Shown: positions 4,068 to 49,730, counted from the stretch's first letter. The stretch: 64,000 bases of DNA from Clostridiales bacterium GWF2_38_85 (GCA_001797275.1 MGOY01000025.1:30964-94963), one strand, 5' to 3'. Notes: generated from the sequence alone by a model not told the origin. Numbers and translations are program-made.

Positions 4068-4208
4068 ATTTATAACCATTCCTTTCGTCATTGCGCGGAG
4101 TTCTGAGCTGGTTTTGCGAAGCAAAATTTACGTCATACTGTCCACCGCATAACTTGTAATGCGGGCGTAAAAGGCACAAAACTCTTTGTCTGAAAGTTTA
4201 CTTTCAAA
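4068..4208 (-). repeat. Family A structured intercistronic element, copy A1 (includes the RBS of the Gfo gene)
   Basis: mRNA sense: hairpin TTTGAAAG-TAAA-CTTTCAGA; outer stem GAGTTTTGTGC/GCTCAGAACTC enclosing TTTACG..CGTAAA and TTTTGC-TTC-GCAAAA; then GAAAGGAATGGTTATAAATATG. Closely similar to 41173-41292. Confidence 0.85.
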
Positions 4209-4219
4209 TTTAACCTACC

Positions 4220-5449
4220 TTACTGTCCTCTTATTATATCTCCAACTTTTGCACTTTCAATTTTTGTGTAAAACATCATTTGAGGATGTGGAGTGTTTTC
4301 AATCGGGTTCATTTCGTTATCATAGAGTTCGTTTATCTTTATTTCTCTTGCTGTTTTTGAGGGTGAAAGCAGGCATACTGTGTCACCCAAACAAAGCTTA
4401 TTCCGCTGAAAGCAAAGTGCCATTCCGGTTTTGGGATTATATTCCTCAATTGTTGAGAGGAATGCTTTTTCCTTTATATATTCATTTACAGTGCAAATTT
4501 GTGCTTTATCGAGCGGTGAGGTGTAGAAATACCCGGTGTCGTATTCTCTATGGCTGACACTTGCAATTTCTTTAAAATATGCTGTGTTCACCGGAGCATC
4601 GGGGTTGTTCACGTAATCGGTCAATGCCATTCTGTAGGCATTTGTTACCGCTGCAGTATAATATGCGCTCTTTACCCTGCCCTCGATCTTAAGTGAATTT
4701 ACACCTGATTTAACAAGAACACCAATATGTTCAATCATACATAAATCCCTTGACGACAGTATATGCGTACCTTCGTCATTTTGTTCAATCGGAATCGGAA
4801 ATTCAGACCTTTTTTCTTCAACAAGTTGATATTTCCAACGGCAGGGTTGAGTACATTGACCGTTGTTTGCATTTCTTCCTGTAAAGTAATTGGACAGCAA
4901 GCATCTACCTGAGTATGATACACACATTGCACCGTGTACAAAAACCTCAAGCTCAAGACTTTCGGGCGTGTTCTTTCTTATATATGTTATTTCCTCAAGC
5001 GAAAGCTCTCTCGCCAGGACTATTCTTTTGATTCCGTATTTATGCCAGAACAGACAAGTTTCGGTGTTTATTGTACTTGCCTGGGTTGACAGGTGCAGAA
5101 CTGCATCGGGATTTATGTTTTTCAACAGCTCCATAACCCCAATATCCGCAACTATATATGCATCAACCGCAAGTTCTTTCAACTGTGTTATCAACTCACG
5201 CAGCTCGCCAAATTCTCTGTCCCGTGGCATTACATTCAGTGTAACATACAGCTTTGCTCCGCTGGTGTGGGCATATTCAATTCCCTCTCTCAGTTCTTCG
5301 GTAGTAAAGTTGTCTGCAGCAGCACGCATACCGAAGCGTTTTAACCCGACATACACCGCATTGCAACCATAGTTGACAGCATATCTGAGCTTTTCAAGAT
5401 TCCCGGCGGGAGATAATAATTCAGGTAATACTATTTTACTGTTGCCCAT
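4220..5449 (-). CDS. U32-family peptidase-like protein (TrhP/YrrO-type tRNA hydroxylation protein)
   Basis: PELLSPAG, HLSTQA, FVHGAMCVSYSGRC, GQCTQPCR and KIEGR motifs; usual position downstream of mltG. Start refined to ATG 5449. Confidence 0.9.
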   Translation of the reverse strand: MGNSKIVLPELLSPAGNLEKLRYAVNYGCNAVYVGLKRFGMRAAADNFTTEELREGIEYAHTSGAKLYVTLNVMPRDREFGELRELITQLKELAVDAYIVADIGVMELLKNINPDAVLHLSTQASTINTETCLFWHKYGIKRIVLARELSLEEITYIRKNTPESLELEVFVHGAMCVSYSGRCLLSNYFTGRNANNGQCTQPCRWKYQLVEEKRSEFPIPIEQNDEGTHILSSRDLCMIEHIGVLVKSGVNSLKIEGRVKSAYYTAAVTNAYRMALTDYVNNPDAPVNTAYFKEIASVSHREYDTGYFYTSPLDKAQICTVNEYIKEKAFLSTIEEYNPKTGMALCFQRNKLCLGDTVCLLSPSKTAREIKINELYDNEMNPIENTPHPQMMFYTKIESAKVGDIIRGQ

Positions 5450-5450
5450 C

Positions 5451-6956
5451 TTAATCTGTTGTGCTTTCTGTCTGGTGTATGGCATCGTACTCTGCGTTGT
5501 CCTTTTCGACCTGCTTTTTATTTACATCATGTCCGGCATCGGTCATAGCATAATAAGTCTTGCCATATTTGTTTGATACGAAGAAATATGCTGTAAAGGA
5601 TTTTCCGTTCGCATCAAGCGGATCATCCGGCCAGAGTGCTGCCGTTATCGCGTCAATACCCGGATTACAGATTGCTCCGGGCGGCAGACCTTTATAAACA
5701 TATGTGTTATAGGGATTATTAAGGTCCTTATCAGCCTGTGATAAATCTTCTTTGTGTTCGGGCAGTACATACTGTATTGTTGCATCTGATTGAAGAAACT
5801 TCTTATCCTCTGCCCAATTGTTAAGTCTGTTATGGAAGACCGAAGACACGCATTCAAGGTCGATCGCAAACTTCGATTCTGCTTCAACCATTGACGCAAG
5901 TGTAATGACTTCATCAAGTGTCATTCCAAGCTCATCGCATCTGTCATAAAAAGAAATGTCAAATTTGTCTTCGAAGGCATTGAGCATTTTATTTATAACA
6001 TCAACTTCATCATCATCCTGATAGAAGAAATAGGTGTCAGGGAACAAATAACCCTCGAGTCTGTATATACGGTCCTCAGAAAGATCAAGCGTATTTAATT
6101 TTACCATAAACTCATGCTTGAAGGGATGGTTGTTTATTACATTGATGTAATCTTCTCTCTGCCCAACGCCGTTTGAAGTCAGAAGGTCAATAATCTGGTC
6201 AACAGTGAAGCCTTCGGGGATTGTGATTTTAACAACCTCTCTCGCAACTTCAACAACAGTAAATTTTGTTACAATTTCATCGTAATTTGAATTGCAGGAT
6301 ATTGTATACTCACCCGGAATATATGAATCGACATCTGAACGATATTTTGCATACAGCTTGAAAACCCAATCAAACTCGATGACACCCTTTTCCTCGAGTA
6401 GTTCGGCGACCTGAGCGGTTGTCATGTTCTCGGTTATGGTTATATTTACTTCGGTTTCGGGTTTAACAAAAGCGAATACTTCGTTACCGATTTTAATTAC
6501 ATTATATGAAACATATGCAGCAACACCGATAACAAAAATAAGGTACATTATTGTTTTGAAAACACCGGAAAAAATCCCGAATAAGCCGAGATTTTCTTTA
6601 TCTTTTTTTCTTTTTTTCTTTTTTCTGGGAAGACTTTCAAGTTCGACTTCGTCCTCAACAGCTTCTTTTTCCTCTTCTTCGCTCTCGTCTTCATTTTGTA
6701 CAGGAGCAAAATGCATTGTCATATCGTTTTTACCCTGCCTGACAGCGGTAGCATCAATTATCTCTGTGAAGTGTGCTGTTGCAGAGTCGTTGATTTTTAT
6801 TGTTTGTTGGGTTGATTCAATGGAATCGGGCTCTGTTTTTTCTTTAACTGCTGTTTTCTGTTCTGGCAATTTGTATTTATCCAATATCTCAAGAATTTCG
6901 TCTATATTTTCACCAATTTCATTTTCTGAATTATTATTCTTTGGATTATCGCTCAT
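5451..6956 (-). CDS. mltG: Endolytic transglycosylase MltG with a long acidic N-terminal cytoplasmic region
   Basis: TIPEG, LEGYLFPDTY, LASMVEAE, LQSDAT and NPYNTY..GLPPGAICNPG motifs; single TM helix. Confidence 0.93.
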   Translation of the reverse strand: MSDNPKNNNSENEIGENIDEILEILDKYKLPEQKTAVKEKTEPDSIESTQQTIKINDSATAHFTEIIDATAVRQGKNDMTMHFAPVQNEDESEEEEKEAVEDEVELESLPRKKKKRKKDKENLGLFGIFSGVFKTIMYLIFVIGVAAYVSYNVIKIGNEVFAFVKPETEVNITITENMTTAQVAELLEEKGVIEFDWVFKLYAKYRSDVDSYIPGEYTISCNSNYDEIVTKFTVVEVAREVVKITIPEGFTVDQIIDLLTSNGVGQREDYINVINNHPFKHEFMVKLNTLDLSEDRIYRLEGYLFPDTYFFYQDDDEVDVINKMLNAFEDKFDISFYDRCDELGMTLDEVITLASMVEAESKFAIDLECVSSVFHNRLNNWAEDKKFLQSDATIQYVLPEHKEDLSQADKDLNNPYNTYVYKGLPPGAICNPGIDAITAALWPDDPLDANGKSFTAYFFVSNKYGKTYYAMTDAGHDVNKKQVEKDNAEYDAIHQTESTTD

Positions 6957-7043
6957 GAAATGGCTCCTTTCAATAATAAAATAAAATTAAAAACATTTAT
7001 TTTTATAGGGAGATTTATGTTTATAGTTATATTTAATAATAAA

Positions 7044-7952
7044 TCAGCTTAATCCGGTAATTACAATGAATATACCTAAAAGCACAAGAAATGCCGGCGA
7101 AAAAAACACCTTAATAATATTGCTTTTACTGCTTGGCGGCAAATCACCGGTCGGAGGTTTTTCTGCATAAACACAGTAAATACTCTCGGTACGTGCAAGA
7201 ACAATAAGCAGACTGACAGAAAACAGTACGACAAGCACAAATGCAACAAAGAAGGTTCCCGATTCCTGCATCATAAGCTTAAGAAATGATCCGTCTACAT
7301 ATAAATTCAATGCATTATTTATCAAGTGTAAAATTATCGGTGTGAAAATGGATCGTGTAACAACCGCTGAAAATCCGAATATTATTCCCGCAAAGAAATA
7401 GACGAAAAAGTTTTCGTATGAAAAATGCACCATCGCAAAACACAGTGCTGAAATTACAATCGCATTTACGCTGCCATAACCCCTGTATTCGCTTAGAATA
7501 ACACCTCTGAAAAAAAGCTCCTCACAAATCGCAGGAATCAGCGCGAAGGTTAAAAATATATACAGCCCATTATTTTCGCCTTCAGGTAAAGCGAATTGCG
7601 ATAACATCCCCGAATCACCGGCAAGACTGCCATCGGTTATATAATACATAAAAAACTTAATCAGCATATTTCCGGTGATAAACATCAATATAACAAAGAA
7701 AACGAAAATCAAATGCGACGGATGAATAACTTTTATAAACATGGGGGTCGTTAGTTTTCTGCCAATACTGTAATAATACAAAATACAGGGCAGAATAAAT
7801 ACTATTATTTGAATAACTATTATAACGAGAAAAATATTATTACCCTGCTGCACTGCTTGTGGAAGTATTATTTCGGTTATACCCAGAAGCAGCAATACCG
7901 CTGCAACAAGAAGCGGTGCTGTAACGGGAACACGGTTATCGTTTAGCTTCAT
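7044..7952 (-). CDS. CPBP/Abi (CAAX-protease-like) intramembrane metalloprotease
   Basis: EELFFRG, FAMVH and HLINN motifs; multiple TM helices. Confidence 0.88.
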   Translation of the reverse strand: MKLNDNRVPVTAPLLVAAVLLLLGITEIILPQAVQQGNNIFLVIIVIQIIVFILPCILYYYSIGRKLTTPMFIKVIHPSHLIFVFFVILMFITGNMLIKFFMYYITDGSLAGDSGMLSQFALPEGENNGLYIFLTFALIPAICEELFFRGVILSEYRGYGSVNAIVISALCFAMVHFSYENFFVYFFAGIIFGFSAVVTRSIFTPIILHLINNALNLYVDGSFLKLMMQESGTFFVAFVLVVLFSVSLLIVLARTESIYCVYAEKPPTGDLPPSSKSNIIKVFFSPAFLVLLGIFIVITGLS

Positions 7953-8020
7953 AATTATAACCATTCCTTTTATAGTGAGTGAGAGTTATGCTGTTCTTCC
8001 GGGCAGAATATTAACAACTT
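7953..8020 (-). repeat. Family A element, truncated copy A2
   Basis: mRNA sense ..GCATAACTCTCACTCACTATAAAAGGAATGGTTATAATTATG matches the 3' half of copy A6 (GGCACAATTCCCACTCACTAAATAAGAAATGGTCATAA) and the shared RBS cassette. Confidence 0.65.
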
Positions 8021-8021
8021 A

Positions 8022-8573
8022 TCAGTTTGATTTATAATACATTCCCTTTCTTAGCTTTTCTGCTTCATCATTGCCGAACAGCACTCTAATAAGCTCAAAT
8101 CCGAACTCAAAGGAGGCACCTACTGCTTTTGCAGTAATAAATATATCATCATGCTCAACCGAATTTCCGGTTATTATACTGCCATCAAGAAATTTTTCAT
8201 AAGATGGGAAGCAGACTGCTCTTCTGCCGGTTAACAATCCCATAGAGCCGAGTATTGATGGTGCTGCACAGATTGCTCCGATGTATTTACCGTTTGCAAC
8301 GCATTGATTGATTGATTGTCTGACAAAGTCGGACGATGCGAGTGCAGCCGTTCCCTTTCCTCCACCCGGCAGAACCAGGGCTTCGAGTTCGGAAAGATCC
8401 ATTTTGTCCTTCATAATGTCTGCATTTACAGATACTCCATGTGATCCGGTTACAACAAGCGATTCGCCTATTGCGGTCAGGTAAACCTTAATCCCGGCTC
8501 TGATCAGAATATCCGCCGGAACTAATGCTTCGGCTTCTTCAAAACCATCCGCCAATAATATGTAAACAGCCAC
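8022..8573 (-). CDS. DJ-1/PfpI (YajL/ThiJ) family glyoxalase/deglycase
   Basis: GFEEAEA, LPGG and AICAAP nucleophile elbow. Confidence 0.9.
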   Translation of the reverse strand: MAVYILLADGFEEAEALVPADILIRAGIKVYLTAIGESLVVTGSHGVSVNADIMKDKMDLSELEALVLPGGGKGTAALASSDFVRQSINQCVANGKYIGAICAAPSILGSMGLLTGRRAVCFPSYEKFLDGSIITGNSVEHDDIFITAKAVGASFEFGFELIRVLFGNDEAEKLRKGMYYKSN

Positions 8574-8692
8574 TTGAATACCTCCTAATTATATTTTTGC
8601 AATCGATTTGTTAAATTTAAAACATAAACCAACACATTATATTATCACAATAACTCTAATATTTCAAGCAATATTTGTATTATGTTATTTAT

Positions 8693-9541
8693 TTACATCT
8701 CATTGTATAAAACATTAACATATAACCCGGTAATGTTCAAAAAAGATTTTAATTTTTTTTCAACAGCAATAATTTTATTTGCATTCGATATAAAATCGTC
8801 TTTAACATTGATTGGTAAAGTAATATCTGCTTTCCCGAAAGGCGAAAAGCTTTTCACCGCATCGGTTATCGAAGCTGATGTTTCCGTATCTGTTATAATA
8901 TCAGCAACAACAGCCTTTTTATCCTCAAGTCTATACAATGCTGTAAAGTTGCTGCCAACCACTGCTTTTCCGCCATACAGTAAAAATGACTTTATCGTCG
9001 ATTCGGCAAGGCTATGATTCTTCTTTATATAGCATCTTCCGTTTTTTGTGTACAACTCATCGGTTTTTGCGATGTATTCCGAAATATCGTCGTTGAACCC
9101 AAGCCGTATTATTTCTTTTGGCTCAGGTTGAAATATAATTTCAACTTTTTTTATTGGGATATCTTCATCCATTCCAACATCACGATATAACGAAAAAAGC
9201 GATTTCGTTGCAGGAATACAGAAAACAAAATCATATCCCTGCGATATACTCAATAAATATTCAAAGCAACGATGAAACAACCCTTGTTTGCGATGCTGCG
9301 GAGATGTTGCAACTCCTGCCATATAAAGAGCGTTGCCATCACCGTCTGATGTTACAGCGGTACATTTGAATGCTGTCAGCATTGAACACAGCGTATCACC
9401 TTTGTATGCGCCGATTACTATTTTTTCATCAGGCTCAAAGAACAGTTCAGCTTCTCTGCTGTCACTGTCAAAGCAAACAGCGAACAAGGCTATTGCTTTA
9501 TGTATATCGGTTTTGGGAACGGTCTTTATAATATAGTTCAT
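8693..9541 (-). CDS. GNAT-family N-acetyltransferase (Eis-like N-terminal domain)
   Basis: Acetyl-CoA motif VATSPQHRKQG and CIPA..LFSLY; 1 nt from the DUF2156 gene. Confidence 0.75.
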   Translation of the reverse strand: MNYIIKTVPKTDIHKAIALFAVCFDSDSREAELFFEPDEKIVIGAYKGDTLCSMLTAFKCTAVTSDGDGNALYMAGVATSPQHRKQGLFHRCFEYLLSISQGYDFVFCIPATKSLFSLYRDVGMDEDIPIKKVEIIFQPEPKEIIRLGFNDDISEYIAKTDELYTKNGRCYIKKNHSLAESTIKSFLLYGGKAVVGSNFTALYRLEDKKAVVADIITDTETSASITDAVKSFSPFGKADITLPINVKDDFISNANKIIAVEKKLKSFLNITGLYVNVLYNEM

Positions 9542-9542
9542 A

Positions 9543-10493: not shown

Positions 10494-10516
10494 TAACGCC
10501 GTCAGATTCCCTTCAA

Positions 10517-13128: not shown

Positions 13129-13153
13129 ATAATTTCAAAGTAAAGGAAATAAA

Positions 13154-13275
13154 AAGTTTGAAAATAAATTTTCAAACTCAGGTTTTGTGCCTTTGTGCCA
13201 TATATCAAGGCACAAATTTGATTACATCAAATACGGCACAATTCCCACACCATAAAGAAAGGAATGGTCATAATT
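13154..13275 (+). repeat. Family A structured intercistronic element, copy A3
   Basis: AGTTTGAAAA-TAAA-TTTTCAAACT; outer stem GGTTTTGTGCC/GGCACAATTCC; inner TTTGTGCC-ATATATCAA-GGCACAAA and TTTGAT-TAC-ATCAAA; then GAAAGGAATGGTCATAATTATG. Confidence 0.87.
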
Positions 13276-13524
13276 ATGGATGACAGAATGTTAATGGAAA
13301 GCCTGCTTGTGTCAACAAAAAATGCATGTGAGCTGTTTATGCACGGAACAATTGAGGCATCGACAAGCAATATAAAATCCACATTTGATCAGGCATTGCA
13401 AGATGTAATACAGATACAAAATGATATCTACTGCCATATGGCTGATAAAGGCTGGTATCCCCAGACCGCAGTCGAACAACAGAAGATACAACAGGTAGCC
13501 CAGAAATATCAGGCAAACGCATAA
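13276..13524 (+). CDS. Spore coat protein (Coat F domain-like)
   Basis: MDDR..MESLL...K, HGTIEAST and M..KGWY pattern typical of Coat F-type proteins. Confidence 0.75.
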   Translation: MDDRMLMESLLVSTKNACELFMHGTIEASTSNIKSTFDQALQDVIQIQNDIYCHMADKGWYPQTAVEQQKIQQVAQKYQANA

Positions 13525-19689: not shown

Positions 19690-19718
19690 TTGACAATACC
19701 TTTTTACGGTTTTATAAT
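19690..19718 (+). promoter_or_regulatory. Consensus sigma-A promoter of the sugar-utilisation operon
   Basis: TTGACA-17 bp-TATAAT. Confidence 0.8.
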
Positions 19719-19727
19719 ATCTAAATA

Positions 19728-19790
19728 GTGAGTTTTATGCTTTCCGGTATACAGTACTGCCGGAGTTTGAAAATCGCATAAAACATTACG
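19728..19790 (+). repeat. Family A-like element A8 in the 5' UTR (outer stem only)
   Basis: GAGTTTTATGC...GCATAAAACAT outer stem as in copy A7, with an inner TCCGGTA..TGCCGGA hairpin. Confidence 0.55.
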
Positions 19791-19833
19791 TTATTATTTT
19801 GCGTAATTTTTTATTTGGAAGGGAAATAAAATT

Positions 19834-20655
19834 ATGAAAAAACCGGTTGCAATACAGCTTTATTCGGTACGCGAGCAGTGCGAGAAAGATTTTCCCGGCA
19901 CACTTACAGAACTGAAAAGAATGGGATATAACGGTGTTGAGTTTGCAGGCCTTTACGGCTACACCGCAAAAGAAGTCAAGGTACTGCTCAAGGATATCGG
20001 ACTTACTCCCATTTCCGCACACGTTTCCTACGAGGACATGACAACAAAAACCGAACAGATGATATCTGACTACTCTGAAATCGGTGTAAAATACATCGGC
20101 ATACCTTACCTTGTTGAAGAGCATAGACCGGGCGGTGCAAAATACGCTGAAACAATCGCAAGCATGAAGGAGTTGTCAACATTGCTTAAAGCAAAGGGTA
20201 TCCAGCTTCTCTACCACAACCACGACTTCGAGTTCACAAAAATTGATGGCAAATATATGCTTGACATACTCTACACTGACCTTTCAAAGGACGAACTTCA
20301 GACAGAGCTTGACCTCTGTTGGGTTGCTGTCGGCGGTGAGAATCCTGCAAATTATCTCAGAAAATACAGTGGTCGCGCTCCGGTTGTCCACTTCAAGGAT
20401 TTTTACATAGAAGGTCAAACCGGTGCTAAGCTCTATGATTTGATAGGCATTGACGACAATAAACCAGCTGATAAAAGCACCTTCGAATATAGACCAATCG
20501 GTACGGGACTTCAGGACATCGGCGCAATGCTGAAGGCTGTCGATGATGCTGGTTGCGAATGGATCATCATTGAACAGGATGAACCGACAGCATCAAAACC
20601 CTACTCACGTTTGGAATGTGCAGAGATAAGCATAATAAATCTGAAAAAATATTAA
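19834..20655 (+). CDS. Sugar phosphate isomerase/epimerase (IolE/AP-endonuclease-2 TIM barrel)
   Basis: QLYSVR, GVEFAG, YHNHDFEF, ELD..W, HFKD and EQD motifs. Confidence 0.88.
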   Translation: MKKPVAIQLYSVREQCEKDFPGTLTELKRMGYNGVEFAGLYGYTAKEVKVLLKDIGLTPISAHVSYEDMTTKTEQMISDYSEIGVKYIGIPYLVEEHRPGGAKYAETIASMKELSTLLKAKGIQLLYHNHDFEFTKIDGKYMLDILYTDLSKDELQTELDLCWVAVGGENPANYLRKYSGRAPVVHFKDFYIEGQTGAKLYDLIGIDDNKPADKSTFEYRPIGTGLQDIGAMLKAVDDAGCEWIIIEQDEPTASKPYSRLECAEISIINLKKY

Positions 20656-20755
20656 TTTTTTCAGATATTCGAGTTTTATGCTTCATGGCATCCAGCATAT
20701 CCATGAAGCATAAAACATCGGCATTCTGTTATTTATGAAAGGATTTATAATATAT
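20641..20755 (+). repeat. Family A element, copy A7 (two-way variant)
   Basis: CTGAAAAAA-TATTAA-TTTTTTCAG with the upstream stop codon in the loop, then CGAGTTTTATGCTTCATGG...CCATGAAGCATAAAACATCG, then the GAAAGGA RBS. Confidence 0.7.
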
Positions 20756-21781
20756 ATGCTTAGCGAAAACCTATACCTGAAAAGACCTCTCGTATTCAGA
20801 GCAGACGGCAGCTTTAAAATAATGCTGTTCTCAGACCTTCACGGTGTACCAAATCATGATCCCCGCCTTAAAAGAGGCATAACTGAAATGGTTAAAGCTC
20901 AAAAACCCGACTTAGTATTCCTGAACGGCGACCAGATGTATGGGCTTGAGACTGTTGAGCAGGTTAAAAACTATCTGACTGATATTACGGAAGTGCTTGA
21001 GAAAAATCAAATTCCGTGGGCGCATGTCTATGGCAACCATGATTCCGAAGCCGGACTCTGCAAGGAAGAACAACAGAAAATCTATGAAAGCTTCGATTAT
21101 TGTATCTCGAAAAGAGGGCCGGTTGATATACACGGTGTCGGAAATTTTGTTCTTCCAATCAAATCAAGCAAAGATGGCACGATAAAATTCAACATTTGGG
21201 GCATTGATTCGCTCCAGTACATAAACGCATATGATGAGGAATTCAATGTCTCTGCCACAAACGGTTATAGGTCTGTGCTGCCAAAGCATTTTTCAAACGG
21301 CACCTACTACGATACAATCCGTTTCGACCAGATAATGTGGTATTATAACAGCTCTAAGGAGTTTGAAGTCTATAACAAAGCGAAAATACCTGCGCTTATG
21401 TTCTTTCACATAGCAATCCCGGAGCATATGCTGATTTACATGAACCCTGTCGAAACGGCAATGAACGGAGCATTCAACGAGAATGTTTGCTGTCCTGAGC
21501 TTAACAGCGGCTTGTTCAGCGCGGCCGTTCAGAGAGGCGATGTCAGGGGTATTTATGTCGGTCACGATCACAACAACACCTACGACGGCATCTACTGTGG
21601 TGTGCATCTCGGCTTCGACAGCGCAATGGGCTTCAACAGCTACGGTATGTCGGGTGAAACACAGACAGAACAGTCAAGCTGCCGCGGCTGCAGGGTTTTT
21701 GAGCTGAACGAACAAAATCCGGCGGACTATAAAACCTATATGTTAAGAGTAGTCGATTTTATTGATGTTGAAAGGATTTAA
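20756..21781 (+). CDS. Calcineurin-like metallophosphoesterase (Dcr2/PAP-like)
   Basis: SDLH, NGD, GNHD, FFH and GHDH metal-binding motifs. Confidence 0.88.
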   Translation: MLSENLYLKRPLVFRADGSFKIMLFSDLHGVPNHDPRLKRGITEMVKAQKPDLVFLNGDQMYGLETVEQVKNYLTDITEVLEKNQIPWAHVYGNHDSEAGLCKEEQQKIYESFDYCISKRGPVDIHGVGNFVLPIKSSKDGTIKFNIWGIDSLQYINAYDEEFNVSATNGYRSVLPKHFSNGTYYDTIRFDQIMWYYNSSKEFEVYNKAKIPALMFFHIAIPEHMLIYMNPVETAMNGAFNENVCCPELNSGLFSAAVQRGDVRGIYVGHDHNNTYDGIYCGVHLGFDSAMGFNSYGMSGETQTEQSSCRGCRVFELNEQNPADYKTYMLRVVDFIDVERI

Positions 21782-38745: not shown

Positions 38746-41172
38746 TTAAGATCTTAATTTCGCTCCGAATTTGTCTTTGACTCTCTTCAATACCTTTTTT
38801 ACAACTGCATCGGCATCCTCGTCGCTCATGGTCTTTTCTATGCTGAGCAGTACCATACTGTATGCAACGCTCTTTTTTCCTTCAGGAACACCCTTTCCCT
38901 GATAAACATCAAAGATCTCAACCGAGATCAACTGTTTTCCGCCGCTTTCTTTGATAACCTTAGCAATATCACCGGCAGGTGTATCTACATCGCAGACAAT
39001 CGCAATATCACGGCTTATGGATGGATATACAGGCAGAGATGTGTACTGCTTGCGTTCGGGCATATTCGTATAAATAGACTCGCAGTCAAGCTCAATCATG
39101 TATGTGTTTAGCGGAAGTCCGATTTCCTTCGCACATTCGGGATGAACCTGGCCAATCATACCAAGCTTGGTTGTATTGCTGCGTGTGACAGAATATATGC
39201 CGGCACTTCTGCCGGGCTGAAGATAGCTTTCGTTTTCAGCCATTACCTCAACATTGTTTATATTGAATTGAGCAAGAAGCTCTTCGCATACACCTTTCAT
39301 CTCAAAAAAGTCACAATCACCATAACCGACTGCAACCAGCACCTTATTTTCGCTGTGACTGCCATCCTCGTTGGGTATATAAACAAGCGAATGTTCGAAC
39401 AGCTTGACATCCTCCGCACGGTGGCTGTAATTGTAGGCAACAGTTTTGAGAAGCGAAGCAACTGCGGTTGTACGCATTATACTTGTATCCTCGCCCAGCG
39501 GATTTATCAGTTTTATGCTGTTTCTGCGTTTATCGTCAGCTGTAAGCCTTAACAAATCGTAGTATTTTGGGCTGATAAACGAGTATGTGTATGCCTCGGT
39601 ATAGCCGAGTGAAACCATTGTATTATTAATTTTTGTATCGAATTTCTGCCTGTCTGTCAGACCGCCGGGAATAGCTTCACCGTAGAATTTTGAGGTTTTA
39701 ATTTTATCATATCCGTAAAGTCTTGCTACTTCCTCAGCTATATCAGCGGTTTTCTCGATGTCGCCTCTGAAGGGCGGAACAACAAGCAAAAGTTTATCTC
39801 CGTCTTTTTCGACTGTCATTTCAAGCGGCAGCATAAGCGTTGCCATTTCTTCTGCGGTCAGCTCTGTACCAAGCAATGCATTTACGCGTTTGTAATCGAA
39901 TGCAATCTTTCTTTTTCCGATATCCGCATTATTTATATCGATTAGACCCTCACAGGCTTCGCCGGCACCAAGCATTTCAACAAGCTCAACAGCACGAAGC
40001 AATGCAGGCATTGTATTTACCGCAGGCAGTCCCTTTTCAAATCTCCCCGAGCTTTCTGTCCTGACACCAAGTGCATTTGCAGTATGACGGACATTTGAGC
40101 GATTGAAATTTGCGCTCTCGAACACAACAGTTGCGGTTGTATCAAGAATTTCGCTGTTCTCTCCACCCATAATACCTGCAAGTGCAATAGGTTTCTCGCC
40201 ATCTGCAATAACAAGCATATCAGCTGTTAGCTCATGCGGAACACTGTCAAGGGTTGTGATGCTTTCGCCCTGTCTTGCACGTCTGACAACTATACGCTTT
40301 GATCCAATGTATGAGTAATCGAATGCATGCATCGGCTGACCGTACTCAAGCATGACATAGTTTGTTATATCGACAATATTGTTTATTGAACGTACACCCA
40401 TTGCACGAAGTCTGGCACGCAGCCAGAGCGGTGATGGTGCAATCTTAACATTCTTCACCATTGCGGCGCTGTATCTCGGGCAAAGATCTTCATCCTGAAC
40501 CTCAACGCTGAGAATTTCGGGTGCAATTATTTTGCCAGTAACCTGATCAGGAACCGCGGGAGTATGCAGTCTGAGCGATTCGCCAAGTGTTGCAGCTGTT
40601 TCTCTTGCAATACCGATTACCGAAAGGCAATCGGGGCGGTTGAAGGTCAGCTCAAACTCAATTACTGTATCATCAAGCATACAGACATCTTTTATATTAT
40701 CACCGAGTTTGCAATCCTCCTGAAGCAGGAAGATACCGTCTTCTTCGGCATATGAAAAATCGTTTATTGTAAGTCCAAGCTCTTCAAGTGAGCATAACAT
40801 GCCTTCGGAAACCTCACCTCTGAGTTTACCGGATTTTATTTTCTTGCCAACGGTTTTACCGTTGGCAATGCCTCCCGCAACAACTGCACCGTCAATAGCA
40901 ACAGGAACAAGACTGCCCGGGACAACATTCTGTGCTCCGGTAACAATCTGCAACACCCTGTCTCCCATATCAACCTTGCATATGTTAAGATGGTCGGAAT
41001 CCTTATGTTTTTCTATTTCAAGTACTCTGCCGACAAAAATATTCTGAAGCACATCTCCAAGAAAGGTATATCCCTCAACCTTTGTTCCGGTGTGAGTCAT
41101 CTGTTCGGAATATTCTCTTGCTGTGCAGTTTACATCAACATAATCCTTGAGCCAATTTATCGAAACTTTCAT
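38746..41172 (-). CDS. pheT: Phenylalanine--tRNA ligase beta subunit
   Basis: MKVSINWLKDY, SEGMLCS, NRPDCLS, GQPMHAFD, EEVARLYGYD and a C-terminal FDX-ACB domain. Confidence 0.97.
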   Translation of the reverse strand: MKVSINWLKDYVDVNCTAREYSEQMTHTGTKVEGYTFLGDVLQNIFVGRVLEIEKHKDSDHLNICKVDMGDRVLQIVTGAQNVVPGSLVPVAIDGAVVAGGIANGKTVGKKIKSGKLRGEVSEGMLCSLEELGLTINDFSYAEEDGIFLLQEDCKLGDNIKDVCMLDDTVIEFELTFNRPDCLSVIGIARETAATLGESLRLHTPAVPDQVTGKIIAPEILSVEVQDEDLCPRYSAAMVKNVKIAPSPLWLRARLRAMGVRSINNIVDITNYVMLEYGQPMHAFDYSYIGSKRIVVRRARQGESITTLDSVPHELTADMLVIADGEKPIALAGIMGGENSEILDTTATVVFESANFNRSNVRHTANALGVRTESSGRFEKGLPAVNTMPALLRAVELVEMLGAGEACEGLIDINNADIGKRKIAFDYKRVNALLGTELTAEEMATLMLPLEMTVEKDGDKLLLVVPPFRGDIEKTADIAEEVARLYGYDKIKTSKFYGEAIPGGLTDRQKFDTKINNTMVSLGYTEAYTYSFISPKYYDLLRLTADDKRRNSIKLINPLGEDTSIMRTTAVASLLKTVAYNYSHRAEDVKLFEHSLVYIPNEDGSHSENKVLVAVGYGDCDFFEMKGVCEELLAQFNINNVEVMAENESYLQPGRSAGIYSVTRSNTTKLGMIGQVHPECAKEIGLPLNTYMIELDCESIYTNMPERKQYTSLPVYPSISRDIAIVCDVDTPAGDIAKVIKESGGKQLISVEIFDVYQGKGVPEGKKSVAYSMVLLSIEKTMSDEDADAVVKKVLKRVKDKFGAKLRS

Positions 41173-41292
41173 AAATTATATTTTCCTTTCTCCATATTGC
41201 GGAGTTTTGTGTCGGTTTTGCGAAGCAAAATTTACTCTATACTTTTTGATGTAAAAGATACAAAACTCTGTATCTGAAAGTTTACTTTCAGA
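41173..41292 (-). repeat. Family A structured intercistronic element, copy A4 (fills the pheS-pheT gap)
   Basis: Starts directly after the pheS TAA: TCTGAAAG-TAAA-CTTTCAGA; outer stem GAGTTTTGTATC/GACACAAAACTC; inner TTTAC..GTAAA and TTTTGC-TTC-GCAAAA; then GAAAGGAA RBS. Confidence 0.87.
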
Positions 41293-42312
41293 TTAGAATT
41301 GTGATAAAAATCTCAGGTCATTCTCAAACAACAGACGCATATCGTCTATGCTGTTTTTAAGAATTGTTACACGATCCATTCCGACACCGAATGCAAAGCC
41401 GCTGTAAACCGATGAGTCGATTCCACAGCCGTCAAGCACATTCGGGTGAACCATGCCTGCCCCTAAGATTTCTATCCAGCCTTCGCCCTTACAGAGTCTG
41501 CACCCGCTGCCGCCGCAGGCAAAGCAGGAAACATCGACTTCTGCGGAAGGCTCTGTAAACGGGAAGTTATGAGGTCTGAAACGAGTTTTAGTGCCTGCAC
41601 CGAACATTTTCTGTGCAACCATATCAAGAGTACCCTTGAGGTCGCCCATAGTAATATTTTTGTCAACAACAAGTCCCTCAAGCTGATGGAACATTGGTGA
41701 ATGGGTTGCATCAACACCATCACAGCGGTAAACACGACCCGGAGATATTATTCTGATAGGCGACTGTTTACCTCTCATTGCACGAATCTGTACCGGCGAG
41801 GTCTGGGTGCGTAATAGCAACTCGGGGTTGATATAAAAGGTGTCAGTCATATCCCTTGACGGGTGATCCTTAGGTGCGTTTAGTGCATCAAAGTTATTGT
41901 ATGCAAGTTCGATTTCGGGACCTTCAACAACTGTAAAGCCCATATCAAGAAATATCTGTCTTGCTTCGTATATTGTCTGTGTAATCGGATGCAGTTTGCC
42001 CAGCTTATGACGTTTTGAGGGCAGCGTAACATCGATTTTATCCCTCTCAAACGCTCTCTCCTGTTCAATTTTTCCGATATATTCACGCCTTTCGGCAATT
42101 TTTGCTTCAATTTCTTCTCTGACACTGTTCGCAAGCTGACCGATTACAGGTCTTTCTTCTGCTGTCAATGCGCCCATACCTCTCAGGATTGCTGTAAGCT
42201 CTCCTTTTTTACCGAGATATTTGACTCTGCTCTGTTCAAGCTCATCGGCAGAATTTGTTTTTACGATTTCATCGACAGCGATTTTCAATATCTCTTCTAA
42301 TTTATCCCTCAT
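41293..42312 (-). CDS. pheS: Phenylalanine--tRNA ligase alpha subunit
   Basis: HPSRDMTDTF, LRTQTSPVQ, FPFTEPS and GFAFGVG motifs. Confidence 0.98.
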   Translation of the reverse strand: MRDKLEEILKIAVDEIVKTNSADELEQSRVKYLGKKGELTAILRGMGALTAEERPVIGQLANSVREEIEAKIAERREYIGKIEQERAFERDKIDVTLPSKRHKLGKLHPITQTIYEARQIFLDMGFTVVEGPEIELAYNNFDALNAPKDHPSRDMTDTFYINPELLLRTQTSPVQIRAMRGKQSPIRIISPGRVYRCDGVDATHSPMFHQLEGLVVDKNITMGDLKGTLDMVAQKMFGAGTKTRFRPHNFPFTEPSAEVDVSCFACGGSGCRLCKGEGWIEILGAGMVHPNVLDGCGIDSSVYSGFAFGVGMDRVTILKNSIDDMRLLFENDLRFLSQF

Positions 42313-44155: not shown

Positions 44156-44197
44156 ATCAGACCTACCTTATTATATATTAATATTTTATTATCCTGT

Positions 44198-45958
44198 TTA
44201 TTTTGATTTTTTCTTTTTGAGCATTTCAAAATAATCACCAAGCTTTTCATAATCATCTTCGGCAGCTTTATTTAGTTCTTTTTCTTTGCGTTTTTCCTTT
44301 AACAATTTTATATCTGCCTCCAGAACCTCGGAATCGTTCTTAATCAGCTTCAGCCGGCTCGCCATAATTCTCGATATACTTCCCTGCTCCTTCGCATTAA
44401 ACAGGCTGTCCGCAGAAATATTTAATTCTCTGCCTTCTTCAAGATAAGGTTTCATTGCCGAAAACAACTTTTTTGAAAATGCGGTTACAAAATCCTCATC
44501 CTGTAATACTGTTAATACTTTTTTGCCCAGATCGGGGCGTATTAGAAGTATGCCCAATATACGCTCCTCTATTGTAGAAACATCCGAGAATTTTACTCTC
44601 TCAGGATTGGTATTATCACCGTACCCCAACTTTTTGCGAATTTCGCTGTCGAAAAAGTCGCTTTTTACTTTTTTAAAATGTCTTTTTGTTTTAATCTCAA
44701 TAGCTTTTGCAATTCCGTCGGTTGATAAACCTAAAATTTCAGCTGCTCTGTGGGAATATATTTCCCTTGTCGGTTTATCGCCAATTGTTGATATGTAATC
44801 TGTCAGTTCATTCATCGCATTCTGCTTGTCGTCGGCAAGAGTCAGATCGTATTTTTTCAAAATTTCATTTATCGAATAATCGATTCTTCCTGATGAGCCG
44901 TCAAGCTTTTTCTTAAATGCTGCCGCTCCGTATTTCTTTATATAGTCGTCGGGGTCTTTAACATCTCCCAACTCGATAACCCTTACATTGATTCCAAGCT
45001 CAGTCATAGCTGCAATTGCCTTGTCGGTTGCATTTCTGCCTGCGTTATCCGAGTCATATGCCAGTAGCACATTTTTTGTAAACCGTGCGATTATCCTTGC
45101 ATGCTCAGCGTTTACCGCAGTTCCGAGTGTCGCAACCGCATTGCAGAAGCCTGCCTGATGCAGTGAAATAACATCCATATAACCTTCGCATAAAATTAAT
45201 GAGTCGGTTGCATATACCTTGGCAAAATTCAAGGCGAACAGGTTCCGGTTTTTCTTAAACGCCGGAGTGTCTGAGGTGTTTATATACTTTGGTTTATCGT
45301 CACCCATTGTTCTGCCACCAAAGGCGACAACATTACCCAGAAGGTCAATAATGGGAAAAATAACTCTGTTTCTGTAATAGTCAAAAAGTCTGTCGTTCTT
45401 TGCACCGGCAAGAAAGCCTGCTGTCAGTTCATACGGCTTGAAACCTGATTTTGTCAAGTAGTCTGATAATGCAGTCCAGCTGTTGGGTGAGGCGCCGAGT
45501 CCGAAATGCTTGATTGTTGTTTCCTTCATCTCTCTGTTGCGCAGATAATCGAGAGCCGGTTTCCCTTCGTCTGAGTAAAGGAAGCTATGAAAGAATTTTG
45601 CAGCTTCCTTGTTCATTTCAAGAATCCGCTGACGGTTGACTTGAAATTTATCCTGCCTTTTTTCATCCTGTTCCATAGGGATGCCGCAGCGTCTTGCAAG
45701 GAATTCAATCGCTCCGGGATAATCGAGATTTTCGATGTTCATGATAAAGCTGACGACATCGCCGCCCACTCCGCAGCCGAAGCAATAAAAGCTGCCATTT
45801 GTCGGAAACACAACAAAGGACGGTGTTTTTTCGCTGTGAAAGGGGCAAAGTCCGACCATATTCGAGCCTGCACGATGAAGCTGTACATACTGCCCGATAA
45901 CATCCGAAAGCTCATTTCTGAATTTGATTTCATCAAGAAACGATGGTGTGAATGACAT
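44198..45958 (-). CDS. dnaG: DNA primase
   Basis: CPFH..KTPSF zinc finger, KYIN, EGYMDV and YDSD TOPRIM motifs. Confidence 0.98.
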   Translation of the reverse strand: MSFTPSFLDEIKFRNELSDVIGQYVQLHRAGSNMVGLCPFHSEKTPSFVVFPTNGSFYCFGCGVGGDVVSFIMNIENLDYPGAIEFLARRCGIPMEQDEKRQDKFQVNRQRILEMNKEAAKFFHSFLYSDEGKPALDYLRNREMKETTIKHFGLGASPNSWTALSDYLTKSGFKPYELTAGFLAGAKNDRLFDYYRNRVIFPIIDLLGNVVAFGGRTMGDDKPKYINTSDTPAFKKNRNLFALNFAKVYATDSLILCEGYMDVISLHQAGFCNAVATLGTAVNAEHARIIARFTKNVLLAYDSDNAGRNATDKAIAAMTELGINVRVIELGDVKDPDDYIKKYGAAAFKKKLDGSSGRIDYSINEILKKYDLTLADDKQNAMNELTDYISTIGDKPTREIYSHRAAEILGLSTDGIAKAIEIKTKRHFKKVKSDFFDSEIRKKLGYGDNTNPERVKFSDVSTIEERILGILLIRPDLGKKVLTVLQDEDFVTAFSKKLFSAMKPYLEEGRELNISADSLFNAKEQGSISRIMASRLKLIKNDSEVLEADIKLLKEKRKEKELNKAAEDDYEKLGDYFEMLKKKKSK

Positions 45959-46114
45959 TTCTGCTCCTTTCAGACATAAAACCTCTATGCTTGTTTTGGG
46001 GTATTGCGTGTAGATAAAAGCTTACTTATAATTTTGCTTTTTGTTTATTTTTAGTTTCCCACCCTTTATAAAATAATGATTGGTTTTTATCATATGTTCG
46101 TATATAGTCATAGG

Positions 46115-46678
46115 TTAATCCTCGATAATTTCGTATATAAATTCGCATGGTTTTTCACCAACACTGTTTAATGCTGAAGAAACAATTTCTTTTATTTTCA
46201 ATTTAACTCCAAGTGCATTTTGATAATGATAGCGAAAATGCCCTGCACAGCAAGCACAATAGGTAAGCGACATTGGCTCGTTCGGTAACTTTCCTTTAAG
46301 GCACCAGCAAGGACATTTATAAATATCATTTTCTTTCCCATAGATACCAGTGTAAATTGTGCCATCTGTATATAAAACAGGATTTCCCATCCACTTAACA
46401 GTTGATAAAAGATTGACTTTTTCGCTAAGTGCTTTATCTTTATTAACTTTTGCAAATTGTCTACAGTCTTTATTTCTTTGTCCACCAATGCAACAAGCAC
46501 AATTACTTAAAATATCAACAGTTTCATCATGAGTAAAAGCTTTTTCCAATCGTCTTATTGAATCAGCGATGGCATTAATGTCTTTTGTATTCATGTCATC
46601 GCCTAAGAGTTGATTTATTTTATCTGAATCGATATTATTTCCTAATAAAGCTTTTCGAATTTTTTCAATACTTGGCAT
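46115..46678 (-). CDS. Cys-rich hypothetical protein (DUF6144-like, possible metal-binding effector domain)
   Basis: CACC, CPCWC, TYCACCAGH and CEF motifs; visibly AT-rich, inserted between dgt and dnaG. Confidence 0.6.
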   Translation of the reverse strand: MPSIEKIRKALLGNNIDSDKINQLLGDDMNTKDINAIADSIRRLEKAFTHDETVDILSNCACCIGGQRNKDCRQFAKVNKDKALSEKVNLLSTVKWMGNPVLYTDGTIYTGIYGKENDIYKCPCWCLKGKLPNEPMSLTYCACCAGHFRYHYQNALGVKLKIKEIVSSALNSVGEKPCEFIYEIIED

Positions 46679-46803
46679 AAATTTTCCCCTTAAAATATAA
46701 GTTATTTATTTAGCTTTCATAGGTGGGTCAAATTCTTTATATAATTTTACATGCTCAGGTAACTTATAAATTTATGTTAATTATTATTTCTTTTATTTTT
46801 ATA

Positions 46804-47834
46804 TTATTGCTTATTTACCGCCCATGCACGCGGTACGAAAAGTGAATCGAACACAGCGAGTGCGTAGCGATCTGTCATGCCGGCTATATAGTCACACACA
46901 GCTACATCTATTCCGTCAGAATCTATGAATTTTCGATATTCGGGCGACAATGATTCGGGCTTGCTTTTAAAATAACCGTATAAAAGCTCAAGCATTTTTG
47001 TTACTCTGCCATCCTCGCTTTTCGCCTTCTCGTTTCGGTATACCTTCTCAAACATGAATTCACGCAGCCTGTAGGTTGCAGTTCCGATGGGTTCTGTAAA
47101 TCCCACTCCAAAACTGGTATTGCTGCCGTTATTTACTCCGTATTCGATAACAGAGCGAACCATTGTGTTTATCCTGTCACCATGTGAATAGCCGAGTATA
47201 TCCGACAGCTCAGTCGGTATATCTGAATAGCTGATAATACTTGCACGTACAGCGTCGTCGATGTCATGGTTTATATATGCAATTCTGTCGGCATATTTAA
47301 TTAACTGTCCTTCGAGTGTGAATGCCAGGTCTTCACCGGTATGGTTTGCAATACCATCCCTTACTTCAAACGTCAGGTTCAATCCCTGACCGTCATTTTC
47401 AAGCTTGTCCACAACCCTCAGGCTTTGGCTGCTGTGTGAAAATCCGGCTGGGTTGAGTTGATTCAACGCATACTCACCCGAATGGCCGAAAGGTGTATGC
47501 CCAGGTCATGACCGAGTGCAATCGCTTCGGTAAGGTCCTCGTTCAACCTGAGCGAGCGGGCAATTGTACGGGCAATCCGTGAAACCTCAAGTGTATGTGT
47601 GAGTCTGGTGCGGAAATGATCGCCTTCGGGTGCGATGAACACCTGCATCTTATGCATAAGGCGGCGGAAGGATTTACTGTGGATGATACGGTCGCAGTCA
47701 CGCTGAAAGGGAGTGCGGAATTCACACTCTTCTATCGGCCTTAACCTGCCTTTTGTGAATTGACTTCTGGCAGCTTTATCACAAAGTGCCTGCCGTTCAT
47801 ACTCAAAAATCAAATCCTTCATTTCCATCACCAT
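46804..47834 (-). pseudogene. dgt: dGTP triphosphohydrolase (HD family), split by a 1-nt deletion
   Basis: RTPFQRD..RIIHS.SFRRL..K and RTRLTH motifs. At ~47499-47502 the sequence reads CAT GAC CTG GG CAT ACA CCT TTC GGC CAT; one extra base restores [21 protein letters not shown] and DYIAGMTD lie in the downstream ORF. Confidence 0.85.
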
Positions 47835-47846
47835 AATTTCTGAATT

Positions 47847-49484
47847 CTATTTTATATCTCTCTTGACAAAGGTCCAGAGTGAAGCAACAAACATTGCTAA
47901 AGCTGTTGCCCCCAACATAATAGCACCAAGTGTTGGATTTAGCTGAACAGAAGATAAGTTATACATATTTCCGTCACCCACGAACTGTGATAGATCAAGA
48001 TAAGGTATGATAGTATATTTGAGCCAGTTGACTGAATTTTTCACAGTGTAAGATATTATCTGGTATATCAATGGGAATACAATATTTAATCCTATACCCG
48101 AGACAACCGCCAGTGCTGTGTTCTTTGTTAGGGTTGACATCATAAATGCAACAGAGATAAGGAATATCATTGATATCGAACAGAACATCGCCTGCACAGC
48201 AAGATACAGGAAGAAGCTGACCGACTGGACTGTTTCGCCGGTTACAAACATATATGGATATATAAAATCGGTAAATCCGTAGTTTATACCGAGAGAAATG
48301 ATACATACTGCCATGCCTGCAAACATTGTTATATACCCCGTTATTAAAACCGCTATATATTTCGCAGTTATTATCTTCCAGCGCTTAACAGGTCTGATAA
48401 CAAGCATATTAATTGTCTTAGTTGAGAACTCACCCGACACCATGCTTGAAGCAAGAAATACTGCTATTATAGCCACAAACATGGTCAGCGAAAGAAAGCT
48501 TAGTGATTGTTGACGGGTAGATTGAGTTATTGTGTAATCGGGAGTGTTATTATCAAGGCTTTCCCACAGTATAAGGTTCTTATCCTCGTATTTTTTAAGA
48601 TTGTTCTGTGTCAGTTTTATAAAATCTTCATAACTCTGTTGATTATAACTGTATCGTTCATTATATTCCTGTTCGTTCAATCTTAATTCATTTTTAGAAG
48701 AGATTATATTCTGAGCATTACTGTATATTGAATCCAGGGTGTTATTTTCCCAGCTACCTGAAGGCTCAATATCATTTTCTATACGAAATTCAAGTGTTTT
48801 TATAAATATTTCGTTATATGCTTTACTGTCTTTTAATGAATTAAGTGTATTTTTATATTCTTTATTATTTGGATATTGTTCTAATTTTAACTCAGCGGCA
48901 GTAATTTGGCTGTCGAATTGTTTATCCTGCCCCTCCGCATATTTAAGTTGTTCTTTATAATAGCTCATATAGTCATTGTTTTCAACTGTAAGCCAATATT
49001 GTTCTATTGCATTATTTGTATCTTCAACCAGTGATTCAAGAACATCATCGCTGACTTCAGTTCCAAGATATCCTGAATAATTATACAAATAACTCATTTC
49101 CTCTTCGCTGATATCATTATCAAGTACCAATTCTGCTTCAAAAACAATAATAGCATTTTGTTTTATTTGTTCAACAGTATTAAAGCGCCAGTCATTAATT
49201 TTAGTTACATTATATTCAAGTGCTTTCTCATAGACCGCCTTTTCTACTTTATATTGTTCCTTCACTACTTCCGGTTGATAATCACCTTTAGCTTCAATCT
49301 GCCATTCAAGATCCTGGATCATCTGCGATATATCTCGATCATATCCGTAATCATAATTATTTATATTGCTCAGAAAAGGAAGAGCAAAGCAAAACACAAT
49401 AAAGATTGCGATGACAATTGTTGTGCTGGGAGCTTTGAACTTTTTGATAAGCTCATTTTTTATAAGCCTGCCTAATTTATTCAT
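47847..49484 (-). CDS. ABC-2 type transporter permease with a large extracellular loop
   Basis: LIKNELIK start, GEFSTKTI..LVIRP.KRWKI..AK motif, six TM helices, FVKRDI end. Start refined to ATG 49484. Confidence 0.88.
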   Translation of the reverse strand: MNKLGRLIKNELIKKFKAPSTTIVIAIFIVFCFALPFLSNINNYDYGYDRDISQMIQDLEWQIEAKGDYQPEVVKEQYKVEKAVYEKALEYNVTKINDWRFNTVEQIKQNAIIVFEAELVLDNDISEEEMSYLYNYSGYLGTEVSDDVLESLVEDTNNAIEQYWLTVENNDYMSYYKEQLKYAEGQDKQFDSQITAAELKLEQYPNNKEYKNTLNSLKDSKAYNEIFIKTLEFRIENDIEPSGSWENNTLDSIYSNAQNIISSKNELRLNEQEYNERYSYNQQSYEDFIKLTQNNLKKYEDKNLILWESLDNNTPDYTITQSTRQQSLSFLSLTMFVAIIAVFLASSMVSGEFSTKTINMLVIRPVKRWKIITAKYIAVLITGYITMFAGMAVCIISLGINYGFTDFIYPYMFVTGETVQSVSFFLYLAVQAMFCSISMIFLISVAFMMSTLTKNTALAVVSGIGLNIVFPLIYQIISYTVKNSVNWLKYTIIPYLDLSQFVGDGNMYNLSSVQLNPTLGAIMLGATALAMFVASLWTFVKRDIK

Positions 49485-49612
49485 ATTTATAACCATTCCT
49501 TTTTATCATGTACGATGTTTCGTGCGGTTCCGGCTTGCCGGAATTGCCGCCCCTCTGGCGGCAAAGTCGCAAAACTCGCCGTTTGAAAGAAAACTTGTTT
49601 TTCTTTCAGACT
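49485..49612 (-). repeat. Family A element, copy A5
   Basis: TCTGAAAGAAAA-ACAAG-TTTTCTTTCAAA; outer stem CGAGTTTTGCG/CGCACGAAACATCG; inner TTGCCGCC-AGAGG-GGCGGCAA and TTCCGGC-AA-GCCGGAA; then AAAGGAATGGTTATAAATATG. Confidence 0.82.
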
Positions 49613-49730
49613 TATGACCATTTCTTATTTAGTGAGTGGGAATTGTGCCGTGTTTTGCAAAGCAGAACTTTTGCCATTCCGGACGGCGAAAAGGCACAAA
49701 ACCCAAGTTTGAAAATTTATTTTCGAACTT
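49613..49730 (-). repeat. Family A element, copy A6 (tandem, upstream of A5)
   Basis: AGTTCGAAAA-TAAA-TTTTCAAACT; outer stem GGGTTTTGTGCC/GGCACAATTCCC; inner TTTTCGCCGT/ATGGCAAAA and GTTCTGC/GCAAAAC; degenerate cassette AAGAAATGGTCATAA. Confidence 0.85.

Follow-up and report, generated by a model that had tools for sequence, protein, structure and literature searches.

The stretch of DNA analysed here comprises 64,000 nucleotides (nt) of Clostridiales bacterium GWF2_38_85 (MGOY01000025.1:30964-94963; assembly GCA_001797275.1) and is referred to throughout as the window; bare coordinates are positions within it. Genes for an oxidoreductase, an Rce1-like protease, a CotF protein, a phosphoesterase, PheT and an ABC permease, which share neither a family nor a pathway, are each preceded in the window by a copy of a structured repeat, family A. 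An earlier reading made from the sequence alone (hereafter the sequence-only reading) had described a strand-oriented, structured family lying between unrelated genes, with copies on both strands. This description was borne out; each window copy matches the strand of its gene. As argued below, family A is probably a non-coding dispersed repeat of ~120-130 nt, which entered the translation-initiation regions of unrelated genes by insertion or copying.

The whole genome (G000; 2.83 Mb in 47 contigs, 37.9% G+C) was searched with an nhmmer profile seeded with the five full window copies and iterated, which gave 66 matches at E<1e-3, or 65 once overlaps were dropped. Fifty full-length copies were aligned, and the 28 without large insertions became the seed of a covariance model, R1. 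Its secondary structure, a hairpin (P0) followed by an outer stem (P1) enclosing P2 and P3, was entered by hand, because indels misalign the stems and MAFFT with RNAalifold over all 50 copies recovered just 11 pairs. A covariance-model scan of the genome, which the sequence-only reading had proposed, found 58 copies in the 2.8 Mb at E<=0.01, sense-oriented in front of genes. Copy length is ~118-180 nt across the genome, typically ~120-130 nt and roughly 125 nt. When the window was rescanned with R1 and filters off, all five of the full copies listed earlier were recovered (E 4e-17 to 3e-7), their sequences reading as had been described, and no significant copy emerged beyond those already listed. 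Two of the three partial copies were also upheld (20637-20758, E 0.0015; 7950-8042, E 0.0056), whereas the third, 19717-19817, is only weakly related (E 0.3).

Register with the start codon

The 3' tail of the element, AGAAAGGAATGGTYATA, is conserved, and the AGAAAGGA within it is a strong Shine-Dalgarno (SD) sequence, expected from Firmicutes rRNA to be complementary to the 3' end of the 16S rRNA. The ATG at the end of the model lies within 3 nt of the start of an open reading frame (ORF) of at least 60 aa in 48 of the 58 copies. The ten exceptions are two upstream members of tandem pairs, three copies in which the ORF start is 4-8 nt off and five without a long ORF at the model's ATG. Conservation has a sharp onset at the 5' end, at AAGT, and dies away at position -3 before the downstream ATG, with 3-4 nt left between the conserved part of the tail and the start codon. 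The upstream side is less regular. A same-strand ORF ends within 60 nt upstream of 34 of the 58 copies, which are thus intercistronic, and the other 24 lack one; in several copies, the upstream ORF stops at a TGA within P0. The earlier placement of the element close after the upstream stop codon does not define it well; its 3' end, the SD tail, serves this purpose better.

The sequence on the other side of the element carries a second signal. An SD-like tetramer (GGAG, GAGG or AGGA) is present in the 14 nt upstream of 39 of the 58 copies, compared with 4 of 58 for a control window and 6% of random 14-mers (1201/20000). This motif varies in sequence and spacing among copies that are 88-95% identical internally, and is therefore part of the flank and not of the element. 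Between the tetramer and the element, the commonest distance is 3-4 nt, compared with a peak at 7-8 nt for normal SD-ATG spacing in the genome, a difference that fits insertion 3-4 nt before a start codon. In front of the CotF gene, for example, the resident AAGGA (13143-13147) lies at a normal SD distance from the ATG if the element is taken out.

The window copies and their parts are collected in Table 1. The copy in the pheS-pheT gap takes the pheS stop codon TAA as its first bases, and its tail is followed by the pheT ATG. Two copies stand in tandem between genes for an ABC ATPase and an ABC-2 permease. The distal one lies directly 3' of the ATPase gene (49735-50661), has an SD-like GGAGG adjoining its 5' end and runs from its tail into the next copy, with no start codon; the gene-proximal one leads to the ATG of the permease gene (49484-49482; Pfam). 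Their junction reads GGTCAT followed by AAGTCTGAAAG. In the diverged copy at 20637-20758, P0 and the SD tail are present, a single long hairpin replaces the junction, and the gene downstream encodes a metallophosphoesterase (Pfam). The weak relative at 19717-19817 consists of no more than an outer-stem-like hairpin (GAGTTTTATGC...GCATAAAAC) with a single inner hairpin, and lacks an SD tail adjoining a start.

Table 1. Family A copies in the window, their parts and their immediate setting
Feature	Position	Strand	Evidence
Best full copy	13154-13278	+	R1 127.2 bits, E 4e-17; fold z-score -5.95
CotF-domain gene downstream of this copy	ATG 13276-13278	+	Pfam Coat_F in 13276-13524
P0 hairpin of this copy	13155-13165/13168-13178	+	inverted repeat
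Outer stem P1 of this copy	13185-13191/13235-13241	+	inverted repeat
P2 of this copy	13192-13199/13209-13216	+	inverted repeat
P3 of this copy	13216-13222/13226-13232	+	inverted repeat
SD tail of this copy, AAAGAAAGGAATGGTCATA	13254-13272	+	
Resident SD-like motif AAGGA, 6 nt 5' of this copy	13143-13147	+	sequence and G001 comparison
Full copy with extra hairpin in P2	4065-4211	-	R1 79.3 bits, E 6e-10
Neighbours of 4065-4211: U32 peptidase gene; GFO/IDH/MocA oxidoreductase gene	4220-5485; 3027-4067		Pfam
Partial copy: 3' half of junction and SD tail	7947-8042 (R1 match 7950-8042)	-	R1 32.8 bits, E 0.0056
Rce1-like gene downstream of 7947-8042	ATG 7952-7950	-	copy: nhmmer E 1.9e-6, profile positions 72-139
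Weak relative, not significant	19717-19817	+	R1 21.3 bits, E 0.3; nhmmer E 0.0076
Diverged copy	20637-20758	+	R1 36.7 bits, E 0.0015; fold z-score -6.38
Full copy in pheS-pheT gap	41170-41295	-	R1 78.7 bits, E 7e-10
Gene-proximal member of tandem pair	49482-49613 (R1 match 49482-49596)	-	R1 61-82 bits, E 3e-7
Distal member of tandem pair	49607-49730	-	R1 104 bits, E 1e-13

The tail also contains a second ATG, in frame and 12 nt 5' of the ATG of the gene (ATGGTYATAWWTATG), in ~37 of the 48 copies (e.g. 49496-49482 and 4079-4065, minus strand). Because of it, mechanical ORF calls begin four codons early (47847-49496 and 3027-4124). In one of the five copies without a long ORF at the model's ATG (C14:299998), ATA stands in place of the proper ATG, and the upstream tail ATG opens a 420-aa ORF. 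Family A copies can thus mislead annotation, both by lengthening ORF calls and by being mistaken for riboswitch-like leaders.

Variation between related genomes

A genome of the same genus, G001, with ~66-70% DNA identity to G000 in syntenic genes, was empty at three of the three window sites that we checked. There, the oxidoreductase gene is preceded by a junction of 24 nt with its own SD and the Rce1-like gene by a bare TAA-A-ATG, and before the CotF gene a TAA is followed by 20 nt, including an SD, and then the ATG. When the G000 counterparts of seven G001 copies were inspected by eye, without the model, none had a full element and one had a decayed hairpin-plus-tail remnant (C25:14820). 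This remnant (C25:14763-14820, outside the window) is a degenerate short form in front of a gene whose G001 counterpart (52% identity) has a full element; it may represent a shared old insertion.

The pheS-pheT junction allowed a broader comparison. The gap is 120 nt in G000, compared with 12-42 nt, with an SD of its own, in 29 of 29 other genomes of the bacterial family (30 compared). The C-terminus of PheS and the N-terminus of PheT are conserved across these genomes, and the sole R1 match at the junction is that in G000. Two genomes of another genus, L094 (G062) and L092 (G008), carry tail-like remnants at this junction (GAAAGGAAT...), both missed by R1, and G062 additionally has half a P0 arm. 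These remnants suggest either that the site has been used more than once or that an old insertion has decayed there.

Copies also cluster by genome. For 62 of 62 copies from G000 and G001, the nearest neighbour comes from the same genome, and mean identity is 0.756 within G001, 0.639 within G000 and 0.544 between the two. Family A was found in 7 of 41 relatives, one of them from another family of the same order, and in 20 of 151 genomes of the bacterial family, representing 8 of its 15 genera; the copy counts per genome in this survey are lower bounds, at most 23 candidates having been scored. Nine other genomes (G001, G004, G008, G018, G023, G033, G083, G099 and G106) share the architecture seen in G000, tail included. 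Tandem copies occur in three genomes, with GGTYAT joined to AAGT in G000 and similar joins in G062 and G157. Derivatives of the element also exist, namely seven hairpin-plus-tail short forms, junction-only copies and 12 tail motifs outside R1 matches, some of them in truncated copies. Family A copies are therefore insertions that vary between related genomes and were amplified within lineages. The inference, drawn from sense orientation, that the element acts as RNA rather than as an inserted DNA repeat is not supported, since the SD tail forces the orientation, copies differ between related genomes and cluster by genome, and the helices have no RNA-strand signature (see below).

These results suggest a scheme in which the element would land between SD and ATG, 3-4 nt short of the start codon, and bring a replacement SD with it. 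The gene's own SD would thereby be displaced ~120 nt upstream, and translation of the downstream gene would then depend on the SD carried by the element. Such dependence would explain both the invariable sense orientation of the copies and their persistence. Family A is thus best read as a portable translation-initiation cassette that works like the REP2 repeats of Neisseria, not as a homologue of them, the two being likened by description.

As to how copies might spread, ATGAA follows 28 of 48 copies, compared with 437 of 1465 background starts (p=4e-5), and the 5' end of the element, AAGTYTGAAAG, resembles the sequence that follows its 3' end, AWWT-ATG-AA, with positions -4, -3, -1, +3 and +4 enriched. 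Prompted by a TGAAAGT flanking the pheT copy, we also considered homology between the 5' end of each copy and its own 3' flank, and rejected it: own pairs match on average at 7.57 of 14 positions and cross pairs at 7.68 (permutation p=0.84). The resemblance between the 5' end and the start region is therefore a property of the family and not of individual copies. Spread could proceed through a recombination step that recognises start-codon regions like the 5' end of the element, A-W-W-T-N-T-G-A-A, and a joined-ends or tandem form recombining with such regions would fit both the ATGAA enrichment and the tandem junctions. The helices, for their part, may be kept because propagating copies need them, whether for DNA-level copying or for tolerance inside mRNAs. 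We regard as less likely than not a fuller version of this scheme, in which structured DNA cassettes bearing a ribosome-binding site (RBS) integrate one-way 3-4 nt before starts, perhaps via a joined-ends form, and the fold then insulates or stabilises the mRNA and so uncouples cistrons.

Fold and competing explanations

P0 has the form AAGT(T/C)TGAAAG-loop-CTTTCA(A/G)AC, and is followed by the outer stem, which closes two covarying hairpins. Covariation was scored over 70 copies aligned to R1 (48 from G000, 14 from its congener G001 and eight from four other genomes); as the alignment was fitted to R1, it is biased toward the structure. Standard pairs fill 84.7% of cells; the figure is 71.2% after shuffling, and 27-51% if partners are displaced by 1-3 columns. 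Two-sided changes are present in 30 of 36 pairs (P0 8/10, P1 9/12, P2 7/8 and P3 6/6), and the covariation score of 0.395, against 0.173, was reached by none of 500 shuffles. P0 and the three-way junction thus covary strongly, and the compensatory changes that the sequence-only reading had noted in the inner stems are plainly visible in the MAFFT alignment. Folded singly, most copies are more stable than shuffled sequences (z-scores -1.1 to -6.4). Four G000 copies (C8:8435, C36:141095, C41:49506 and C19:13671) have an extra 20-nt palindrome, TCCGTATAGCNNGCTATACGG, within P2 and a duplicated P3-like hairpin.

Several points weigh against insertion into translation-initiation regions as the origin of the copies. 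We identified no mobilising mechanism; all inverted repeats are internal (P0-P3), and there are neither terminal inverted repeats nor a target duplication. No association with Y1 or IS110 transposases was found among the 151 genomes of the family, which are drafts. The fixed start-codon register fits no known transposition mechanism, and selection on spacing alone would permit a wider spread. A metagenome scan for strain-level empty sites yielded only distant relatives, four loci with 28-60% protein identity, and no conspecific; the closest pairs of copies are ~93-95% identical. Conservation of the tail ATGGTYAT and of the helices extends across genera, with compensatory changes, and could be explained equally by a function in RNA. 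Finally, two of the window sites lie between genes for subunits of one complex (pheS/pheT and the ABC ATPase and permease), as would be expected of a module that sets stoichiometry.

Such a module is the alternative that survives best, although we consider it rather unlikely. Family A would here be a selected, cis-acting element of the mRNA, with P0 shielding the upstream cistron's 3' end once an endonuclease has cut and the junction protecting or insulating the downstream 5' end and exposing the SD; stoichiometry would be set in this way, and spread would be secondary. Because it carries the SD of the downstream gene, the element is indeed part of an mRNA. Its sense orientation and fixed register, the 34 intercistronic copies, the covarying helices, the conservation of the tail across genera and the copies at the two subunit junctions would all suit such a role. 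The stem-loop control described for the cip-cel operon (PMC4423207, PMC10311766) offers a precedent. However, sense orientation is not independent evidence of a function in RNA, because the SD tail forces it: inserted antisense between SD and ATG, a copy would put an end to translation and would not survive. Nor do the helices favour the RNA strand. Over the 70 copies, G-U pairs are not in excess of A-C pairs (108 versus 118, among 1941 Watson-Crick and 252 other cells), and folding favours the sense strand in only 26 of 70, with a mean difference of +0.49 kcal/mol (Wilcoxon p=0.23). In addition, related genomes manage the same junctions without the element, as in the 12-42-nt gaps at pheS-pheT, 24 of the 58 copies have no same-strand ORF end within 60 nt upstream, decayed, truncated and tandem copies exist, and the downstream genes are functionally unrelated. 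An RNA-level role for the fold is thus possible, but the sequence evidence gives it no support.

Two further searches concerned transcription and known RNA families. In four window copies, a scan for consensus sequences only found no sigma-70-like promoter on the sense strand, and no terminator-like site was present on that strand. At the gathering threshold, the only Rfam 15 match in the window was to OLE RNA, and even at E<=1 there were no matches in 20 copy-bearing loci. The repeat, put forward earlier as a candidate undescribed system to be compared with Rfam, especially its Clostridiales and gut-metagenome motifs, accordingly has no covariance-model match there.

It is very unlikely, in our view, that the repeat is a regulon signal, that is, a site at which one trans-acting factor, such as a GGA- or hairpin-binding protein or a small RNA, would co-regulate translation of the tagged genes. 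The idea has a parallel in a proposal made for the contact-regulated genes of Neisseria that are tagged by REP2, the REP2 genes being reported as co-regulated (PMC3184786). Conservation of the tail and hairpin loops across genera and the presence of two GGA-containing motifs per copy, in the resident SD and in that of the element, would suit such a site. However, the tagged genes include housekeeping genes and have no common theme, the tagged set is completely different between two species of one genus, and no candidate factor is in hand, none having been sought.

Still less probable, and already disfavoured, is a relic of a hairpin-dependent single-strand DNA transposon. The element would in that case derive from the REP/BIME or IS200/IS605 type, moved by a Y1 (HUH) transposase, or from the type moved by an IS110-type recombinase, with the hairpins as recognition sites. 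These families typically lack inverted termini and target duplications, as family A does; both strands of the element fold equally well, and insertion is specific in orientation. Against this, PF01797 (Y1) has no match in G000 or G001 and is found in 6 of 20 carriers versus 43 of 131 non-carriers, and PF01548 (IS110-type) in 2 of 20 versus 8 of 131. The absence of a transposase is weak evidence, since draft genomes often leave mobile genes unassembled. The copies, however, lie on both strands of the 64-kb window, where their orientation follows the gene rather than the direction of replication, and no fixed tetra- or pentanucleotide target is present 5' of the element.

Three further candidates were rejected: a MITE (a miniature transposable element with inverted repeats) derived from an insertion sequence, as no inverted repeat joins the two ends and no target is duplicated in the flanks; a gene-specific leader or riboswitch, as the genes downstream in the window are functionally unrelated; and a leader peptide or upstream ORF, as reading from TTG or CTG in P0 gives 2 to more than 50 codons with scattered ends, only 5 of 49 stopping near the start codon.

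Known repeats and other features of the window

In PMC3184786, the REP2 repeats of Neisseria (CREN) and the IR repeats of Borrelia are described as 120-150 bp long, without terminal inverted repeats and with internal stem-loops. They are placed there immediately 5' of ORFs, are said to contain promoter, RBS and ATG alike, and proliferate by a mechanism given as unknown. Family A resembles REP2, so far as this description goes, in being a dispersed repeat of ~120-150 bp with tens of copies, internal stem-loops and no terminal inverted repeats, and in carrying an RBS that reaches the ATG of the downstream ORF (here through the tail AGAAAGGAATGGTYATA, with its AGAAAGGA, in 48 of 58 copies). It differs from the REP2 described there in having no promoter in the four window copies scanned, 34 of the 58 copies being intercistronic, and in having four helices (a hairpin plus a three-way junction) where REP2 has two stem-loops. 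The host is also different, family A residing in a Clostridia-like spore former, and the comparison is one of description. To our knowledge, sequence homology to REP2 is not to be expected across phyla.

IR-A and IR-B of Borrelia plasmids are similar in that, according to PMC3184786, they lie directly 5' of genes, contain a pair of internal inverted repeats and bring both an RBS and an ATG. On that account, and by description only, they differ from family A in being plasmid-borne, low in copy number and promoter-bearing. Among the co-transcribed MITEs listed in this source are Correia/NEMIS, ERIC/IRU, RUP and BOX. Like family A, MITEs are small, non-coding, folded and dispersed intergenic repeats, differ from one strain or species to another and form part of mRNAs. 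In contrast, they have terminal inverted repeats and target-site duplications, occur in either orientation and keep no start-codon register, and family A matches none of these features. The stem-loops of the cip-cel operon of Ruminiclostridium cellulolyticum (PMC4423207, PMC10311766) share with family A a position in the intercistronic gaps of Clostridia operons; they are locus-specific rather than members of one dispersed family and are not known to carry the SD of the downstream gene.

A literature search for an equivalent in Clostridia or Firmicutes returned nothing relevant. As far as we searched, family A is undescribed in print, and the only published RBS-bearing, in-register repeats are REP2 of Neisseria and the IR repeats of Borrelia. 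Within that literature, repeats that bring their own RBS in register with a start codon are thus barely documented, whereas family A offers ~58 copies in one genome and more in at least 19 others of the bacterial family, with clear boundaries, a covarying fold and empty sites elsewhere. An explanation of its targeting would uncover a means by which translation-initiation regions are recognised. Should the fold be important in RNA, the element would be a natural operon insulator, and if cassette and insulator are combined, it would amount to a portable translation-initiation region of natural origin, rewiring the expression of operons in uncultured Clostridia.

Two observations concern other parts of the window. 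A full-length OLE RNA (RF01071) lies at 57632-58250 on the minus strand (433.8 bits, model positions 1-616). It lies between a gene for a polyprenyl synthetase (58357-59271) and an ORF of 199 aa that has no Pfam match (56934-57533), after which comes dxs. An HD-domain phosphohydrolase (46804-47834, minus strand) appears to be divided into two ORFs with a 4-nt overlap, containing HD (47463-47834) and HD_assoc (46804-47466), which could reflect either a frameshift or a genuine split.

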